64,000 bases of DNA from Thiomicrospira cyclica (GTDB lineage Bacteria > Pseudomonadota > Gammaproteobacteria > Thiomicrospirales > Thiomicrospiraceae), in NCBI GenBank assembly GCA_022736205.1, contig DZAT01000002.1, positions 19,308-83,307 of the forward strand, given 5' to 3'. The notes under the pieces are model-generated. The model had not been told where the DNA came from. It saw only the letters and a list, made by a program, of their open reading frames with translations, and did no database searches. Shown here in pieces: positions 18,863 through 32,660 of the stretch. A program made the translations under genes and the position numbers. Each line of letters opens with the position of its first letter. Position 1 is the first letter of the stretch.

Positions 18863-18882
18863 GTGCGCGATTAATCGCGCAC
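18863..18882. terminator. Perfect 20-nt palindrome between convergent dsrE-like and rimO genes
   Basis: The sequence is GTGCGCGATTAATCGCGCAC. It includes the last codons and the stop of rimO. It may act as a bidirectional terminator hairpin, but no strong U-tract is present. Confidence 0.4.
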
Positions 18883-20202
18883 CTTAGCAAACAAGTCGTA
18901 GGTATCCGACCCCGTAATATCCACTTCGACAAACTCACCTACTGGCAAGTGCGCACCATTTTTGATGATCACAGTACCATCAATTTCGGGCGCATCGGCA
19001 GCCGAGCGGGCAATCGCACCCTGCTCACCAATGGTATCGACCAACACCGTCATACGCGAGCCGACTTTAGCTTTCATCTTCTCTTCCGAAATATCCATCT
19101 GCAATGCCATCAACTCTTCCCAACGCTCTTGCTTAACGTCATCAGGCACATGAGTGGCTAAATCATTGGCAACCGCACCATCGACGGGTGAGTATGGGAA
19201 ACATCCCACACGATCCAGCTCGGCTTCATCTAAGAAATCCATCAACATTTCGAAGTCTTCGTCCGTTTCACCTGGAAAGCCGACAATAAAGGTGCTACGG
19301 ATGGTGAGTTCTGGACAAATATCGCGCCATTTCTTAATGCGATCCAATAGGCGATTGACATCGCCTGGTCGCTTCATCATTTTTAAGATGCGTGGACTAG
19401 CGTGCTGGAAAGGAATATCTAAATAAGGCAGAATTTTGCCCTGCGCCATCAGCGGAATGATGTCGTCGACATTCGGATAAGGGTAAACATAGTGCATCCG
19501 TGTCCAGATACCCAAATCGCCTAAAGCACTTGCCATATCGTATAGATTGGTTTTGAGCGGACGACCACCCCAGAAATCCAACTTATGTTTTAAGTCGACC
19601 CCGTAGGCGCTGGTGTCTTGCGACACAACCAATAACTCTTTCACGCCAGCGTTCGCCAAATTTTGTGCTTCCGTCATCACATCGCTAATCGAACGAGACA
19701 CCAATTTACCGCGCATGCTGGGGATAATGCAGAAGGTGCAGTTATGGTTACAGCCTTCCGAAATCTTAAGATAGGCGTAGTGTTTCGGTGTTAACTTTAC
19801 GCCCGTGTTAGGCATTAAATCCAAAAACGGTTCGTGCGGTTTGGGAACATATGTATGCACCGCATTCATCACTTCTGTGTAAGCTGCTGCGCCCGAAATG
19901 GCTAATACATTCGGGTGCTCCGCCATAATCACTTCAGGACGCGCACCCAAGCAACCCGTCACAATCACTTTACCGTTTTCGTTCAAGGCTTCACCAATGG
20001 TATCGAGCGACTCGGCAACAGCAGAGTCGATAAAGCCACAGGTGTTCACCACCACCAAATCTGACCCTTTATAATCGGGCGAAATGTCATAACCTTCGCT
20101 ACGCAACTGCGTCAGAATACGTTCAGAGTCCACCAACGCCTTGGGGCAACCGAGGCTAACAAAGCCAATTTTTGGCGCTTGTGTTACGATTTTATTAGTC
20201 AT
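18871..20202 (-). CDS. rimO: Ribosomal protein S12 methylthiotransferase
   Basis: N-terminal MTTase domain ([12 protein letters not shown]), radical-SAM CNHNCTFC and a C-terminal TRAM domain. I place the start at ATG 20202 (MTNKIV...). The track start at 20226 is 8 codons upstream. Confidence 0.9.
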
Positions 20203-20815
20203 GAGATGCGTCCTTAAGCTCGGCAAGTGCCGTAAATGATGAGTTGTCTATTAGCGCCATCGCAGGTGCAATAATCGCTGAAAAATAAGTAGGAAAGTCC
20301 GTAATTGGTTTTGCTAAAGAAACAGACTCACCCAATTCAAACAACCAATAAGCCTCGTCACTGGCTTTTAAGCTACCAGCCTGTTCTACGGTTAGAACAT
20401 GACGCGGCACAAGCTGAACCGAACTAACTGCCCACAAATAGTTAGCACTACGCTCACCCATACCCGTGACGGTCGTACCCAAGGCACAATAACGAATCGA
20501 CTCAATCAGTGCGTCGTCATAACCTTGCAAAGATGTCGCTGGGATGTGATACCAGCATGCTGTACCTTGCTCAAAACGACGATTGTAATCACTATTACGG
20601 TGATTTTTGGGTGCTGCTGACGCGATCAGTACCTTAGCAGGGCGAAATGACAGTTGATTAGCCTTCTTTACGGGTGCTTGTTTACGAACTTGTGTTTTGA
20701 GCCATGCCTTACAATTGCAAGGCTCTGGGGAAATAGGCAGTGCATGACGTTCGGCAATCTGTCTTAACCGTCGTTCAAACTTTAAGCTTTGAGTTTTGGC
20801 TTTTAAAGAATTCAT
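20195..20815 (-). CDS. Hypothetical protein with basic N-terminus (last gene of the aroB-rimO cassette)
   Basis: 206 aa. The first ~80 residues are K/R-rich ([13 protein letters not shown]..., [12 protein letters not shown]). No motif recognised. Its start overlaps the upstream gene stop as ATGA, and its stop overlaps the rimO start by 8 nt. Confidence 0.5.
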
Positions 20816-21414
20816 GATGCATCTCTCTCCAACGTAGATAATGAGACAAAATTGCGCTTAAATTTCTCGTGATTTTGAATGTTTCGCTGAACATCTTGCT
20901 CATCCCAAATTTGAAGTTCCCAAGGAAAGTAAAAGTTGTTTTTGTTTTTAAAATAAATATGCAAACCACGATAGCCTTCTTTCTCACGCAAATACCAGTT
21001 TTTCAGGTTCAACACATCTTGCCAATCATCCAGCATATCCATCACCGATGCTATGTCATCGCGCTTTAGCGTAATGCGTGCACCAAAAATATCATTCAGC
21101 CAGTTGTTGACAGGGTACTGATCGTCACGTTCAGAAAATCGCACGATCTTGTCATCAATACTTTCGCGCGTTTTAACGCGATAAAAATATCTAAGGTCAA
21201 TGTCAGCGATCATCAAGTAATCATTGATGCTTTCGTGCAGCGTTAAACGATAGTGATAAATATGAGAAATCGGTACAGACTTAATCGTTCTGGAAAGGTT
21301 AACTTTCTCTACCTTTCCTGTCTCGAAGTAGTCATTCGAAAAAGCAAAATGCAAGCGATTAATTTCACTCACAAGTTGTTTGACTAAATCAATTTTATTC
21401 ATTGTTAAATGCAT
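20812..21414 (-). CDS. Small RelA/SpoT-type nucleotidyltransferase (small-alarmone-synthetase-like, possible toxSAS)
   Basis: 200 aa. All synthetase-fold motifs occur in order: RVKTRESIDDKIVR, NDIFGARITL, EGYRGLHIYF, WELQIWDEQ, NHEKFKRN. No HD hydrolase, TGS or ACT domains. Confidence 0.65.
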   Translation of the reverse strand: MHLTMNKIDLVKQLVSEINRLHFAFSNDYFETGKVEKVNLSRTIKSVPISHIYHYRLTLHESINDYLMIADIDLRYFYRVKTRESIDDKIVRFSERDDQYPVNNWLNDIFGARITLKRDDIASVMDMLDDWQDVLNLKNWYLREKEGYRGLHIYFKNKNNFYFPWELQIWDEQDVQRNIQNHEKFKRNFVSLSTLERDAS

Positions 21415-21420
21415 ACCCTA

Positions 21421-21927
21421 CTAATAACCAACCAGCAAAATGCCTTTTAACGGCAAATGTAACCTACTTGATATGTAAAGCGTTTCTAAAAAAGAATAAA
21501 CGATCTCAAAGTCTGCATGCCCTCGATAAGTATTTCTTACTGCAATAACCAGATACTCAACCTTGTGCATCATACAAGCCTGAAAAATATCTTTTAGAAA
21601 TTGATTGTTCTCAGTGGCACGACCAGCTTCAATTTCAATAACGATCTTCCCGTCTCGGCTAAGCGCATCAGCATAAAAAGACTTATCAATTTTATTGTTA
21701 TGCCCAAACAATACAGGAACATGTATTTTATCTTTATTACTTTTTCCAGCCTCTACAAGAAAATCAGCACTTTCTAAATTCGATCTTATTGCAGATAACA
21801 CTTCATTGCTTGACAAGTTATTAGCGTCAGAAGAGATGAGATGATTCACCGCATCAAAACATTGCACGATTTGCTCTAGTTCTGTCGACAACCCAATCGA
21901 ACGAGGAAATAGCTGATAATTTATCAT
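21421..21927 (-). CDS. BglII/BamHI-like restriction-endonuclease-fold protein (tentative)
   Basis: 168 aa. Putative catalytic core DALSRDGKIVIEIEAGRATENNQFLKD, followed by YLVIAVRN and the C-terminal LPLKGILLVGY. This resembles the D...E-x-E/Q layout of BamHI/BglII-type enzymes, recalled from memory. Confidence 0.4.
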   Translation of the reverse strand: MINYQLFPRSIGLSTELEQIVQCFDAVNHLISSDANNLSSNEVLSAIRSNLESADFLVEAGKSNKDKIHVPVLFGHNNKIDKSFYADALSRDGKIVIEIEAGRATENNQFLKDIFQACMMHKVEYLVIAVRNTYRGHADFEIVYSFLETLYISSRLHLPLKGILLVGY

Positions 21928-22769
21928 GACTTAAAATGCAGTAATTTAGCTGGAAGAAAATTAGTTGAATGATTGGGATTTCGTATTTCTACGTCAACAA
22001 TAGTAAACGCTTCAGATTGAGCAGATAGAATATTTTTCCTATCACTTTCAGGCAGCGAGTTAAATTTTTCTTTTGTTATCAGGCAGCTTAACTGAAATGA
22101 TTCTGTATTTTCTATTGTGTGAACATCTGAAAAAATATTCGTTGGATTATCGACAATACACTTACTACGAATAGGTATTTTTGTAACGTTTAGGTAATCT
22201 ACGCTACCCAAACAACCGATGTCATCCAATGTCTTACAATCAACCTCGACACCAGAATAAGAACTAGGATCAACAATTTTAATTATACGCTCGTATACTG
22301 TTGCATTAGCAACAAAACAATCACCATAAATCAGCCATAAATGGCGTAGATATTCTTCTTTTTCGATTGTACCAATTGCATAAATTAAATCCTTTTCTTG
22401 CCAGTCTTCGGCGCTTCGACAAAACGAGTTAATTTTGGAACTATTCGCAAGCAACTTTGCCTTCGGATACAAACTATTAAATACAATATTACCATCGATG
22501 CTATCAAGCTCGAACAGTTCAATCGCATCGCCACCTTTTAGCATCATATCAGGCGGATTGTTTTGATTTCCTGTATAACTAAAAACGGATTGATGTTTAG
22601 CTCTCTTTTGGATTCCTTCCAATGTAAAACTATCCGCAAACGAATCTTTAATGAAATCCTCTAACGCAACTCCCATCGCATTCATGCGATTCGCATGATC
22701 AGAATTGTTGATTAAGGCTTGGTCATAATGTTGAACTATTGCTTGAATCGCCGTTAAAAAACTTGCCAT
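21924..22769 (-). CDS. NgoPII-like type II restriction endonuclease homolog (orphan, possibly inactive)
   Basis: 281 aa. The segments NRMNAMGVALEDFIKDSF, VFSYTGNQNNPPDMMLKGGDAIE, FNSLYPKAKL, AEDWQEKDLIYAIG and VEIRNPNH match my recollection of the RE_NgoPII family. Its ATG overlaps the aroB stop as TAATG. Confidence 0.5.
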   Translation of the reverse strand: MASFLTAIQAIVQHYDQALINNSDHANRMNAMGVALEDFIKDSFADSFTLEGIQKRAKHQSVFSYTGNQNNPPDMMLKGGDAIELFELDSIDGNIVFNSLYPKAKLLANSSKINSFCRSAEDWQEKDLIYAIGTIEKEEYLRHLWLIYGDCFVANATVYERIIKIVDPSSYSGVEVDCKTLDDIGCLGSVDYLNVTKIPIRSKCIVDNPTNIFSDVHTIENTESFQLSCLITKEKFNSLPESDRKNILSAQSEAFTIVDVEIRNPNHSTNFLPAKLLHFKS

Positions 22770-23881
22770 TACCCTACCTCACCCCGATAGGCATGCCACT
22801 CAACCAATGTTCTATCTAGTAGGCTGGCATCGTAATCGCCCGTCATATAGGCTTTACCGATTGATTGCAGCAGCACCAAACGAATATGCCCTGCATCTGC
22901 CTTCTTATCCACAGCCATCATATCTAAAAACTGTGCAGGCTTAATTTGGGGTGGCGGATATAACGGCAAACGCGCACGACTGACGATATCTGCCATGCGG
23001 TCTAAGTCGACCTCACTGATATTGCCCATGATTTTGCTCATGTAGCCCGCCATCATCATCCCAGCACCGACAGCCTCGCCATGCAACCATTCGCCATATC
23101 CCATACCAGTTTCGATGGCATGACCAAAGGTGTGTCCCAAATTGAGTAAGGCACGCACATCGGCTTCTTTTTCATCGGCGGCAACAATATCGGCTTTATC
23201 TTGGCACGAACGCGCAATGGCATAAGCCAAGGCTGCAGGTTCGCGTGCAAGCAATGCATCCATATTGACTTCTAACCAGTCAAAGAAAGGAGCATCGCAC
23301 AGCAAGCCATATTTAATGATTTCTGCCACACCTGCCGACAGTTCACGATCGGGCAAGGTATTGAGCGTGAGCGTATCAATCAGCACCACTTTCGGCTGAT
23401 GAAAAGCGCCAATCATGTTTTTACCCAGTTCGTGATTAACCCCAGTCTTACCCCCAACAGACGAATCGACTTGCGATAACAAAGTGGTTGGAATTTGGAT
23501 AAAATCAACGCCACGCTGATAAATAGACGCAGCAAAACCAACCATATCACCAATCACACCACCACCGAGCGCGACCAGCATGCACTTACGATCAAAACGC
23601 GCCTCGAGCAGGGCAGTAAAAATTTTATTCAACTCGCTCAGCGTTTTGTATTCTTCGCCGTCATCCAAAATACAGGTAGCGACTCTTTTACCTGTGCCTT
23701 CAAAGAGCGCAATGGCTTGTGCCATATACAAAGGCGCAACCGTGGTATTAGAAACAATCATCACTTGCTTGGCTGGCACGTGCGGCAACACTAACGCTGG
23801 CTGATTCAATAATCCTTCGCCAATATGAATCGGGTAAGAACGCTCGCCCAAGGCGACGGTTAAGGTTTGCATATCAGACAT
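22769..23881 (-). CDS. aroB: 3-dehydroquinate synthase
   Basis: 370 aa with the motifs [27 protein letters not shown] and HGEAVGAGM. Confidence 0.93.
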
Positions 23882-23893
23882 GATGATTCTCCA

Positions 23894-24445
23894 TTAGGCT
23901 CGAGCGCCTTTTGCTTCTGGCCAGCCACGATCGGCCAAGGCATTTAAAATTTCTTGTACCACACGGGTAATGGATTTTCGCTCGGTATGCAGCACAATAT
24001 CCGCCACCTGACGGTAGAACGGTTCGCGCACTTTCATTAATTCGGTCAGTACACGCTCACTATCAACGTTTTGTAATAACGGACGCGTGGTATCGTGACG
24101 TGTTCGTTCGACAAGTTGCTTAACAGGCGACGATAAATAAATAACCGTGCCGTATTCTTTGAGCGCTAACCGATTCTCTTCACGAATCACCGCACCACCG
24201 CCTGTTGCTAACACCTTGCGCGCACCATGCTCAACTAGGTCGGCGATAACTTGCGTTTCACGCACACGAAATCCATCCTCACCCTCGACATCGAAAATGG
24301 TGCTAATCGATACCTTTAAGCGTGCTTCAATTTCATGGTCTGAGTCGACAAATGGCAAGTCCAATACCTGAGCCAGACGCTTACCAACCGATGATTTTCC
24401 TGCCCCCATGGGGCCAACTAAAATGACGTTTCGTTTCTTATTCAT
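23894..24445 (-). CDS. aroK: Shikimate kinase
   Basis: 183 aa. P-loop GPMGAGKSSVGK. Its position upstream of aroB fits. Confidence 0.9.
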   Translation of the reverse strand: MNKKRNVILVGPMGAGKSSVGKRLAQVLDLPFVDSDHEIEARLKVSISTIFDVEGEDGFRVRETQVIADLVEHGARKVLATGGGAVIREENRLALKEYGTVIYLSSPVKQLVERTRHDTTRPLLQNVDSERVLTELMKVREPFYRQVADIVLHTERKSITRVVQEILNALADRGWPEAKGARA

Positions 24446-30494: not shown

Positions 30495-32660
30495 ATGGAC
30501 AAAGACTGCGGTGTTGCGCCGTCAAACCAACAAGACTGTCTGCCAGACCCGCTTTGTCTGCAAAGGCTGCTTCAGAAAGCCTGCTACCTTAAAACCGATC
30601 AGCAAGATCGGCTACGTTCTGCATTTTGGTTCGGTGCACAGGCACACCAAGGGCAAATGCGTAAAAGTGGCGAACCTTATATTACCCACCCCCTCGCTGT
30701 TGCTGGCATTTTAGCTGACATTCATTTAGATGTTGATAGCTTAACGGCTGCTATTTTGCACGATGTGGTCGAAGATACCGTCATCAATCGCGGCGATGTT
30801 GCGGTTCACTTTGGCGAAGATGTTGCTAATCTTGTCGAAGGGGTTACTAAACTGGGTAAACTCGAGTTTTCTAATCCTCAAGAAGCACAAGCCGAAAACT
30901 TCCGTAAAATGCTGATGGCAATGGCGCGCGATTTACGTGTCATTCTCATTAAACTGGCTGACCGCTTACATAACATGCGCACCATCGGTAGCATGCGTCC
31001 TGATAAACGCCGACGCATCGCACGTGAAACACTCGACATCTATGCCCCTATTGCCGCTCGCCTAGGTATTAATGCTTGGCGAATGGAGTTGGAAGATTTG
31101 TGTTTTACCGCCAAGTTTCCCATTCGTGCACGTGTTCTTGCCGACGGTGTGCGTAAAGCACGCGGCAACCGCAAAGAGTTGGTGGAACAAATCACCGATG
31201 CTATCGCTCATCGATTGATGCAAGAAGGTCTTGTCTGTGACGTTAAAGGACGCGAAAAACACCTGTTTAGTTTATATAAAAAAATGAAGCAAAAGCGATT
31301 GCATTTCAATGAAGTGATGGATATTTACGCTTTTCGCATCATTGTTGATAATGCCGATGCCTGTTATCGCACCTTAGGCATGATTCATTCGTTGTATAAA
31401 CCCGTACCAGGTAAGTTTAAAGATTATATCGCCATCCCTAAACCCAATGGCTACCAATCGTTACACACCGTGTTATTTGCGACACAAGGCGTGCATATCG
31501 AAGTGCAAATTCGCTCTAACGATATGCATACACTTGCCGAACATGGTGTTGCAGCGCATTGGTCTTATAAGCTCAATGGTTCTTCTCGTGTTGCAGCAGC
31601 CGACCAACGCGCACAAGAATGGGTTAAGCATTTGCTCGAAATGCAACAGAGCGCGGGCAACTCACTCGACTTTTTAGAAACGGTTAAAATCGACTTATTC
31701 CCTGATAGCTTATATGTATTTACACCCGATGGCGATATCAAAACCTTACCGCGAGGCGCAACTGTTGTCGATTTTGCCTACGCAGTACACACCAAACTAG
31801 GGCACACCTGTATTGGGGCGCGTGTCAACAGAATGCCTGTACCGCTCAAAACCCAACTACAAAATGGTCAAACCGTTGAAATTGTTCGTGGTAGTGCGCC
31901 CGCTCCCAACCCCAACTGGCTTGACTTTGTCACCACTGCAAAAGCGCGCAGCCAAATTCGCCACTATCTTAAAAACCAACACAGTGAGCATGCCATCGCT
32001 CTAGGCGATCGACTGCTTAAAAAAGCACTGCACGCTTTGGGCATACCCAGCACGCCCATTCCGACGAAGCAACAACAACATTTATTGCTCGAACTTAAAG
32101 CAGCCGACTGGAGCGAGCTGTTAATGACCATTGGTTTAGGAAATCGCTTACCCGCACTGGTTGCCAAACAAATCGCCGACGGCTTAAATGAAAGCAACCC
32201 CATACCGACCTTGTCACAACCATTGCACATATCGGGTACTGAAGGTTTAGCATTAAGTTACGCGCACTGTTGTCACCCCATTCCAGGCGACTCCATTATG
32301 GGGTTTATTAGCAGTGAACGGGGGTTGGTCATTCATCGTACCAGCTGTCCAAACCTACTCAACTTCCGTAAGCACCCCGAAAAGTGGCTCGATGTACAGT
32401 GGGAGGAAGGCATTAATAGCGAGCTCCCCGTGGCGATTACAATTGAAACGCACAATAAGCGTGGTGTGCTCGCAATGGTTGCCAATACCATTGCAACGGA
32501 AGGGTCAAACATTGAAAGTGTCGATAATGCCGATAAAGACAACCATCACAGCGTCATGCATTTTACCATTACCGTACGCGATCTTGATCATATACACAGT
32601 GTGTTGCGTCGTTTGCGCAATATGCCAGACGTGCTCAGTGCTGAACGAGATGCAAGCTAA
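30495..32660 (+). CDS. spoT: Bifunctional (p)ppGpp synthetase/hydrolase
   Basis: 721 aa. HD hydrolase domain (ITHPLAVAGILADIHLD...HDVVEDT), RelA/SpoT synthetase domain, TGS and C-terminal ACT-like domains. It follows rpoZ as in the gmk-rpoZ-spoT arrangement. The exact start is uncertain. Confidence 0.9.
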   Translation: MDKDCGVAPSNQQDCLPDPLCLQRLLQKACYLKTDQQDRLRSAFWFGAQAHQGQMRKSGEPYITHPLAVAGILADIHLDVDSLTAAILHDVVEDTVINRGDVAVHFGEDVANLVEGVTKLGKLEFSNPQEAQAENFRKMLMAMARDLRVILIKLADRLHNMRTIGSMRPDKRRRIARETLDIYAPIAARLGINAWRMELEDLCFTAKFPIRARVLADGVRKARGNRKELVEQITDAIAHRLMQEGLVCDVKGREKHLFSLYKKMKQKRLHFNEVMDIYAFRIIVDNADACYRTLGMIHSLYKPVPGKFKDYIAIPKPNGYQSLHTVLFATQGVHIEVQIRSNDMHTLAEHGVAAHWSYKLNGSSRVAAADQRAQEWVKHLLEMQQSAGNSLDFLETVKIDLFPDSLYVFTPDGDIKTLPRGATVVDFAYAVHTKLGHTCIGARVNRMPVPLKTQLQNGQTVEIVRGSAPAPNPNWLDFVTTAKARSQIRHYLKNQHSEHAIALGDRLLKKALHALGIPSTPIPTKQQQHLLLELKAADWSELLMTIGLGNRLPALVAKQIADGLNESNPIPTLSQPLHISGTEGLALSYAHCCHPIPGDSIMGFISSERGLVIHRTSCPNLLNFRKHPEKWLDVQWEEGINSELPVAITIETHNKRGVLAMVANTIATEGSNIESVDNADKDNHHSVMHFTITVRDLDHIHSVLRRLRNMPDVLSAERDAS

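Follow-up and report, generated by a model that had tools for sequence, protein, structure and literature searches.

The 64,000-nucleotide stretch of the Thiomicrospira cyclica genome analyzed here (contig DZAT01000002.1, positions 19,308 to 83,307 of the forward strand; hereafter the window) carries on its minus strand a 200-residue open reading frame (ORF; 20812–21414) with a FaRel2-like RelA/SpoT synthetase fold, which resembles the small alarmone synthetases (SASs). We propose that it encodes a solitary FaRel2-like enzyme, a defense-type cargo gene that replaced the methylase of an NgoPII-type restriction-modification (R-M) cassette, and we assign this reading a probability of about 60%. 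In the original prediction the SAS was instead a possible toxic SAS (toxSAS) paired with a basic 206-residue protein encoded by the following gene (P206; 20195–20815, minus strand). The toxSAS-like nature of the synthetase is borne out, in that FaRel2 is its nearest characterized match, its active site is intact and the contexts of its family are of the defense type; P206 falls away as the partner, being a genus-core gene found at none of 83 SAS loci sampled elsewhere.

The replacement is evident from a blastn comparison of the window with the island of a relative (L058), which recovers homology at 23991–22626, 21952–21422, and 20824–20328. The SAS exactly fills the interval from the stop codon of the preceding 168-residue ORF (P168) to 9 nt before the ATG of P206. 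The left breakpoint lies at 21403–21423 on the minus strand, where homology with the relative's island stops at the P168 stop codon (21421–23), an 18-nt spacer separating it from the SAS start at 21402; the right breakpoint, together with the ATGA shared by SAS and P206, spans 20812–20824 in the alignment with L058. In the same interval L058 holds a methylase remnant that is 95% identical to the C-terminus of the methylase from a relative with an intact cassette (G007), and the last codons of the SAS ORF (GAG AGA GAT GCA TCA TGA) align with the end of the L058 methylase (GAG GTA GAC GCG TAA). The family alignment places the 186-residue core of the SAS at 20845–21402, with the probable start at ATG 21402 (MNKIDL...). 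The family normally ends in ...KFKRNF(I/V), right after the toxSYNTH core, whereas the window copy reads on through a 10-codon tail (20815–20844) to a stop at 20812–20814; this tail is absent from the family outside the aroB|P206 island of this genus and is shared by a congener (L114, protein P0002). Going by these alignments, the SAS took the slot of the C5 methylase in an NgoPII-type cassette between aroB and P206, and both the ATGA overlap and the tail at its C-terminus are relics of the former methylase/P206 junction.

The two overlapping ORFs are both present on the minus strand as predicted, with a 4-nt ATGA overlap at 20812–20815; however, this overlap, which had been read as the sign of a bicistron, derives from the earlier methylase/P206 junction. 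The genes aroK-aroB-REase-P168-SAS-P206-rimO, with REase denoting the restriction endonuclease, form a tightly packed and entirely co-directional string, in which the aroB stop overlaps the REase start by 1 nt and REase and P168 overlap by 4 nt. Since several junctions overlap, the overlap is not special to that of SAS and P206. More generally, a gene can take over an ATGA overlap from the one that it replaced, and toxin-antitoxin prediction may be misled in this way.

Five alleles of the aroB|P206 junction were distinguished among the window (20815–22769) and the loci L002-4, L058-60, L113, L114, and L115. The first is empty (e.g., L002-4). The second (G007) is an intact NgoPII-type R-M cassette in the order aroB-REase-methylase-P206, with a 281-residue REase and a 357-residue C5 methylase. 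The third (L058-L060) is decayed and comprises an 83-residue REase fragment, P168 (95% identical), and an 80-residue methylase fragment. The fourth, that of the window, contains REase, P168, and SAS, and the fifth (L114) an N-terminal REase stub followed by SAS, with P168 absent. The presence of five alleles with start/stop overlaps kept at each boundary points to an insertion hotspot whose contents are exchanged via conserved flanks. L114 has an identical SAS/P206 junction, with a P206 that is 63% and a SAS that is 86% identical to those of the window, and the occurrence of the same junction with a diverged P206 likewise speaks for island alleles having been exchanged via these flanks. On our reading the NgoPII-type (GGCC) cassette was first inserted between aroB and P206, and the SAS then replaced its C5 methyltransferase gene. 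In this junction nature provides a clear-cut case of alleles turning over at a defense hotspot.

P206 itself shows the distribution of a resident gene. Its 51 homologs grade smoothly in identity from 100% to 44% and are all Thiotrichales-like; it is encoded in 10 of the 11 other genomes of the genus, the lone exception being an 81%-complete genome, and no homologs were found outside the genus. The aroB stop overlaps the P206 ATG, with no SAS between them, in L002-L004, L039, and L041-L046, and rimO follows P206 in L042-44. In its nearest homolog (89% identical) the end of a methylase overlaps the start of P206, again with no SAS upstream. As had been predicted, the P206 gene is higher in GC content than the SAS, with values of ~0.46–0.49 over P206 and the flanks against ~0.34–0.41 over 20800–22750; this low-GC block also takes in two further genes upstream of the SAS (21421–21927 and 21924–22769) that were left out of the earlier account. 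The phyletic pattern indicates that P206 is a vertically inherited genus-core gene, which is normally coupled directly to aroB.

This pattern decides against a type II toxin-antitoxin pair of a 200-residue toxSAS and a 206-residue basic protein in this genome. Such a pair would account for the ATGA overlap, for the proximity of the SAS to a validated toxSAS and for the recurrence of the SAS-P206 adjacency in one diverged congener (L114), and the antitoxins of toxSASs are known to be diverse (PMC7229694). However, P206 follows aroB without a SAS in most congeners, the SAS occurs at the 83 other loci without P206, the two genes lie on different contigs in one congener (G008), and the overlap itself descends from the methylase/P206 junction. 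P206 further has the GC content of the host and a PUA-like fold that is also found fused to a nuclease. A toxSAS module has been defined as a SAS in a two- or three-gene arrangement that is conserved across lineages, with demonstrated neutralization (PMC7229694); we looked for such a conserved bicistron and found P206 adjacent only at the aroB site of this genus. We therefore regard the pairing as highly improbable and reject with high confidence a role for P206 as the antitoxin of the SAS.

What P206 might do instead is hinted at by its fold. It has no match in Pfam, NCBIfam, or PADLOC, in keeping with the absence of a recognizable motif noted earlier, and its N-terminus is indeed rich in basic residues (net +11 over 58 residues); it is disordered and is modeled with low confidence. 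The best fold likenesses of its ordered domain are to PUA-like readers, viz., ASCH, YTH, EVE, and the VcaM4I/McrB reader domains, the matches being weak but coherent (E 6e-3 to 0.1, TM ~0.5). An 871-residue frame in the same genome (G000, contig C137:211-2823, minus strand) has a McrC-like nuclease architecture with DUF2357 and PD-(D/E)xK_7 domains; its last domain shares 38% identity with the folded part of P206. P206 itself may be a PUA-like reader module that stands alone. The homolog of one congener (G006:C22:2408-3019; L045) contains an in-frame TAA and could be a pseudogene or reflect a sequencing error.

The contexts of the SAS family were sampled at 32 named genome loci, 18 metagenome or genome places, and 33 viral-contig loci, i.e., 83 in all. 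P206, P168, and REase are beside the SAS in none of the 32 genome loci, a P206-like gene is beside it in none of the 18 places or the 33 viral loci, and no recurrent neighbor of any kind emerged across the three sets; neither did a recurring downstream ORF among the neighborhoods compared. What recurs is the type of locale. Of the 32 genome loci, 11 have clear type I R-M genes flanking the SAS and another 3 have remnants of such genes; the layout is hsdM-(RhuM)-Fic/DOC-(KilA-N)-hsdS-SAS-(Phd/YoeB)-hsdR. The start of the SAS often overlaps the stop of hsdS, and the HsdR proteins contain the EcoR124_C domain, i.e., are type IC-like. All 18 further places show hsdS-(variable cargo)-SAS-hsdR. The viral contigs have a cI gene (HTH+S24) followed by SAS in 33/33 cases and int downstream in 32/33, and in prophages and satellite phages of Streptococcus agalactiae the SAS is similarly lodged in the lysogeny module between cI and int. 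Solitary copies are found by ilvA/hicAB in Thiomicrospira, between parE and parC in Streptococcus, and after rsmA in Neisseria gonorrhoeae, and others adjoin a resolvase/DUF1173, AhpC or a GGDEF-EAL protein. Further copies, on megaplasmids of streptococci, bear the annotation GTP pyrophosphokinase. DNA similarity between the loci begins and ends at the ORF boundaries. Within the genus, the SAS is found in 2 of 11 congeners, at other sites, including G008. The distribution marks the SAS-like gene as mobile single-gene cargo rather than a vertically inherited housekeeping SAS, and we propose that the family moves as a single ORF that would lodge in always-on operons.

Several of these loci deserve mention in their own right. 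The loci L005, L007, L010, L011, L020, and L062-L079 share one type IC-like R-M backbone with interchangeable cargo, whose HsdM and HsdR are 80–90% identical across Methylococcaceae, Azonexus, cyanobacteria, and Neisseriaceae; its cargo besides the SAS includes Fic/DOC, RhuM, KilA-N, AAA_13, DUF1016/YhcG, and Phd/YoeB. Two loci come from Streptococcus suis and S. pseudopneumoniae (L031/L032): in L032 the SAS is between parE and parC, beside a gene for an ANT(6)-type streptomycin adenylyltransferase, and in L031 it is beside Fic and DUF1232 genes, with flanking ORFs that match parE/parC in size. No matches to the parE/parC flank were obtained in the viral contigs. The gonococcal copy (L118) is an intact 189-residue family member, 59% identical, directly after rsmA/ksgA; the partial gene table of PLSDB lists no feature for it, and the record there is a 2.17-Mb chromosome labeled as a plasmid.

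A number of candidate partners were rejected individually. A conserved flanking RNA or small ORF is at odds with DNA similarity that stops at the ORF ends, the synonymous substitution rate (dS) being saturated. A 48–49-residue ORF over the SAS start in some type I loci is a remnant of the Fic N-terminus, is confined to two related sets of loci and is absent in the window, and a 110-residue upstream ORF is a RhuM fragment. The prophage CI-type HTH+S24 protein is not a dedicated partner, its alleles being 57–100% identical where the SASs are 99–100% identical. The downstream 186- and 182-residue genes of L006 and L028 encode a resolvase and an AhpC-like protein, the gonococcal 189-residue ORF examined as a partner is a lipoprotein-like singleton, and the small phage ORFs are not common to different phage groups. 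P168 belongs to GGCC-type cassettes and is absent from the 32 other SAS loci and from the SAS-bearing L114.

The recurrent presence in R-M operons raises an alternative in which the SAS is a PrrC-like guard, silenced by co-encoded restriction proteins (HsdM/HsdS and HsdR, or here REase or P168) and firing when a phage disables restriction. It occupies the hsdS-X-hsdR slot of prrC in the type IC-like operons, often with the hsdS stop overlapping its start, and the window copy is likewise inside an R-M cassette. Defense functions are enriched among the genes that type I R-M operons harbor, PrrC being the classic case and found almost exclusively in such systems (bioRxiv 10.1101/2024.01.29.577857; PMC3458546). 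However, the obligate linkage is not seen in the SAS family: many copies have no R-M genes nearby, as in the cI-int, parE-parC, gonococcal rsmA, and ilvA-hicAB locales, the L114 SAS is maintained without P168 or a full REase, and different operons carry different, interchangeable cargo between hsdS and hsdR. We accordingly consider a guard of this kind quite unlikely.

Turning to the enzyme, the 200-residue protein matches a single Pfam model, RelA_SpoT, and narrowly so (28.8 bits, where 27 is the cut-off), and, as predicted, is a bare synthetase domain with no HD, TGS, or ACT domain, thereby sharing the SYNTH-only architecture of toxSASs across a 186-residue family. The predicted catalytic motifs DIFGAR and ELQI are present and are invariant across the family. 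More than 835 homologs, typically of 186 residues and 75–82% identical, span the Gamma- and Betaproteobacteria, cyanobacteria, Bacteroidales, Fibrobacteria, and streptococci. In a search of 1.84 billion representative sequences 508 matched the family at E<=1e-3 and 31 at E<=1e-30, by which measure the family is small and discrete; a second tier of full-length, uncharacterized proteins of 200–220 residues scores 80–100 bits to it and is nearer than FaRel2. The non-synonymous rate (dN) within the family is 0.10–0.15, dS is saturated or >1, and dN/dS, where measurable, is 0.04–0.09. The low dN/dS and saturated dS imply an ancient family under strong purifying selection over its whole length.

These values bear directly on whether the window copy is an inert passenger that landed by chance in this genome and is no longer functional. 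Its weak Shine-Dalgarno context, the read-through tail at its C-terminus, and a promoter and terminator scan of the locus that yielded nothing above chance would all suit such a passenger. Nevertheless, the copy keeps every family-invariant residue, dN/dS is low, and a copy 86% identical to it persists at this junction in a congener that has diverged, so that we hold loss of function to be very improbable.

Profile and fold searches agree on the affinities of the family. Searched against the PDB, the family profile recovers FaRel2 (8PU1/8PU3/8PU4) over the whole core at E 3e-8 and 37 bits, ahead of RelP (E 2e-3, 21 bits) and a RelQ-like protein (E 5e-3, 20 bits). With an AlphaFold model of the SAS (predicted local distance difference test score, pLDDT, 80.9), FaRel2 chains take ranks 1–5 in Foldseek (E 5e-7 to 6e-6, template-modeling [TM] scores 0.46–0.59), with RelQ/RelP following at E>=2e-4; CapRel and Tas1 structures were not recovered in this search. 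In FaRel2, R64, K66, S70, K74, and R77 bind the donor ATP, D90 binds Mg, and R95 and Y128 hold the acceptor adenine (PMC11782079). The donor residues align with the invariant R75, K77, S81, K85, and R88 of the SAS, and D90, R95, and Y128 with the likewise invariant D104, R109, and Y144. Because the active-site residues of FaRel2 align to invariant positions, the SAS enzyme is very probably active.

A housekeeping, RelV/RelQ-type affinity, which the original prediction named as counting against it, is not borne out, FaRel2 being a better match than RelP/RelQ by both profile and fold. A broader version of this alternative is a non-toxic accessory alarmone synthetase, making (p)ppGpp or (pp)pApp in the manner of RelQ/RelP/RelV or the activator-dependent GRel/Pag1B, for which an antitoxin would be unnecessary. 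Such an enzyme would fit the lack of an antitoxin at any SAS locus sampled and the neutral overall charge of the protein; SASs also lie on a continuum of toxicity (PMC7229694), and one toxSAS has been reported to be non-toxic by itself (bioRxiv 10.64898/2026.04.06.716658). However, RelP/RelQ are more remote from the family than is FaRel2, an enzyme that makes no alarmone; the family is patchily distributed and has moved horizontally among R-M operons and the lysogeny modules of prophages, unlike a housekeeping regulator; and the genome already encodes RelA and SpoT. We judge this alternative to be unlikely. The genuine SpoT noted in the original prediction is confirmed in the window as a long RelA/SpoT homolog (RSH), with its RelA_SpoT domain at 31248–31577 inside the indicated ORF.

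We therefore favor the solitary, defense-type cargo enzyme. On this proposal the SAS would use ATP to pyrophosphorylate the 3' ribose of an acceptor that carries adenine; by homology this acceptor is most likely the tRNA CCA end, or otherwise a purine nucleotide. The enzyme is probably a defense effector and would act in phage defense or abortive infection. It would be kept harmless by being weakly expressed, intrinsically inactive, or dependent on a trigger, rather than by a dedicated neighboring antitoxin. Certain observations weigh against this proposal. FaRel2 is only a distant relative, with 21–25% identity and TM scores of ~0.5–0.6, and at that distance the substrate cannot be transferred with confidence. 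The family proteins are near neutral overall (isoelectric point 5.8–9.0), which is uninformative on the substrate and lends no support to tRNA binding. A potent toxin is hard to maintain without an antitoxin, so that the protein may not be toxic. Finally, the context sample is redundant, since three seed proteins gave rise to all 18 places and the viral loci, 33 in number, belong in essence to a single phage group.

A more specific version of the preferred reading takes the SAS to be a minimal, antitoxin-free toxSAS, a trigger-activated back-up effector of restriction systems and prophages that would be PrrC-like but act by pyrophosphorylation of tRNA 3' ends. We regard this as unlikely as it stands. 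Were it correct, the extreme conservation of the family might reflect contacts with a universal target, and possibly also with host or R-M proteins, and the SAS would have taken the methylase slot of a type II cassette while leaving the endonuclease intact.

The remaining genes of the string lie on the minus strand on either side of the SAS. Upstream are P168 (21421–21927), of a family associated with HaeIII/NgoPII-type (GGCC) R-M cassettes; a full-length NgoPII-family type II REase (21924–22769; Pfam 7e-80); and aroB, coding for 3-dehydroquinate synthase (22769–23881), the left flank of the insertion hotspot. Downstream of P206 is rimO (18871–20226), whose listed start is TTG 20226 and whose likelier start is ATG 20202 (MTNKIV...). 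From the latter it overlaps the P206 stop by 8 nt, which is consistent with translational coupling along the operon.

The REase of the window is full-length and has no adjacent cognate C5 methyltransferase, the slot being occupied by the SAS. Four other C5 methylases are encoded in the genome (two on contig C172 and one each on C160 and C59), and are only 33–39% identical to the cognate-type methylase of G007. Both GGCC (observed/expected 0.21) and CCGG (0.18) are strongly underrepresented in the genome, suggesting that restriction has exerted pressure over a long period. The P168 family comprises more than 3,400 proteins, always of 168 residues and ~70% identical across phyla, and occurs between the methylase and endonuclease of HaeIII/NgoPII-type cassettes (e.g., Galbibacter, L061). 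P168 has no Pfam match, and a PDB sequence search returned nothing significant; it is intact in L058 although the R and M genes of that cassette have decayed. It could have a Vsr-like or other accessory function.

To our knowledge, before the activator-dependent PANGU systems every characterized toxSAS was under the control of an antitoxin, whether encoded separately or fused to it as a domain. The FaRel2-like family described here is large and strongly conserved, its active site is intact, and no antitoxin was detected at the sampled loci; it recurs in both of the classic positions for defense cargo, hsdS-X-hsdR and cI-X-int. If the SAS proves not to be toxic, it would mark the boundary between toxic and benign SAS chemistry.

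Among known systems the closest comparison is with FaRel2 of Coprobacillus sp. D7 (PDB 8PU1, 8PU3, 8PU4), the tRNA-pyrophosphorylating toxin of the faRel2/aTfaRel2 type II module. Both have a single toxSYNTH domain of ~190–205 residues with an ordered N-terminal helical extension, conserve all the ATP-donor, Mg, and acceptor-base residues, and have an ExQ motif without the following R-T of EVQIRT, the canonical motif of the long RSHs and RelQ/RelP. Unlike FaRel2, the SAS family has neither an ATfaRel2-type small antitoxin nor another conserved neighbor, lacks the C-terminal region that in FaRel2 folds on antitoxin binding, and sits in R-M operons and prophage lysogeny modules rather than in a bicistron. 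The housekeeping SASs RelQ/RelP/RelV are set apart by their lower profile scores (21/20 bits for RelP and RelQ against 37 for FaRel2) and by the occurrence of our gene in 2 of 11 congeners at different sites. In type I PANGU (GRel/Pag1B) the toxSAS can be non-toxic by itself, and control is exerted through an activator (bioRxiv 10.64898/2026.04.06.716658); unlike it, our system has neither the ~333-residue YejK-like nucleoid-associated protein (NAP) as partner, P206 being a 206-residue PUA-like protein with no Pfam match, nor the DNA-mimic or any other extra domain on the synthetase.

The SAS family resembles CapRel (e.g., CapRel-SJ46), a fused toxSAS frequently nested within type I R-M operons, in deploying a RelA/SpoT-fold defense gene as single-gene cargo, both in such operons and in prophages. 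It differs from this ~350-residue protein in its 186-residue length and in ending after the toxSYNTH core, without the fused C-terminal pseudo-zinc-finger domain (pseudo-ZFD) that serves as antitoxin and sensor, and CapRel structures were absent among the matches of both the PDB profile and the fold searches. Membership in PADLOC PDC-S33 was set aside, the weak match covering the catalytic core only (profile positions 50–152 of 349). Like PhRel (gp29 of the mycobacteriophage Phrann), it is a toxSAS-type gene deployed from prophages, although PhRel has the adjacent antitoxin gp30 and the SAS has no such neighbor. In relation to the anticodon nuclease PrrC of the type IC E. coli prr system, the fold and chemistry are unrelated and the SAS family is frequently solitary or prophage-borne; however, many of its members share with PrrC the slot between hsdS and hsdR, and, if the SAS is FaRel2-like in its activity, both would disable tRNA.

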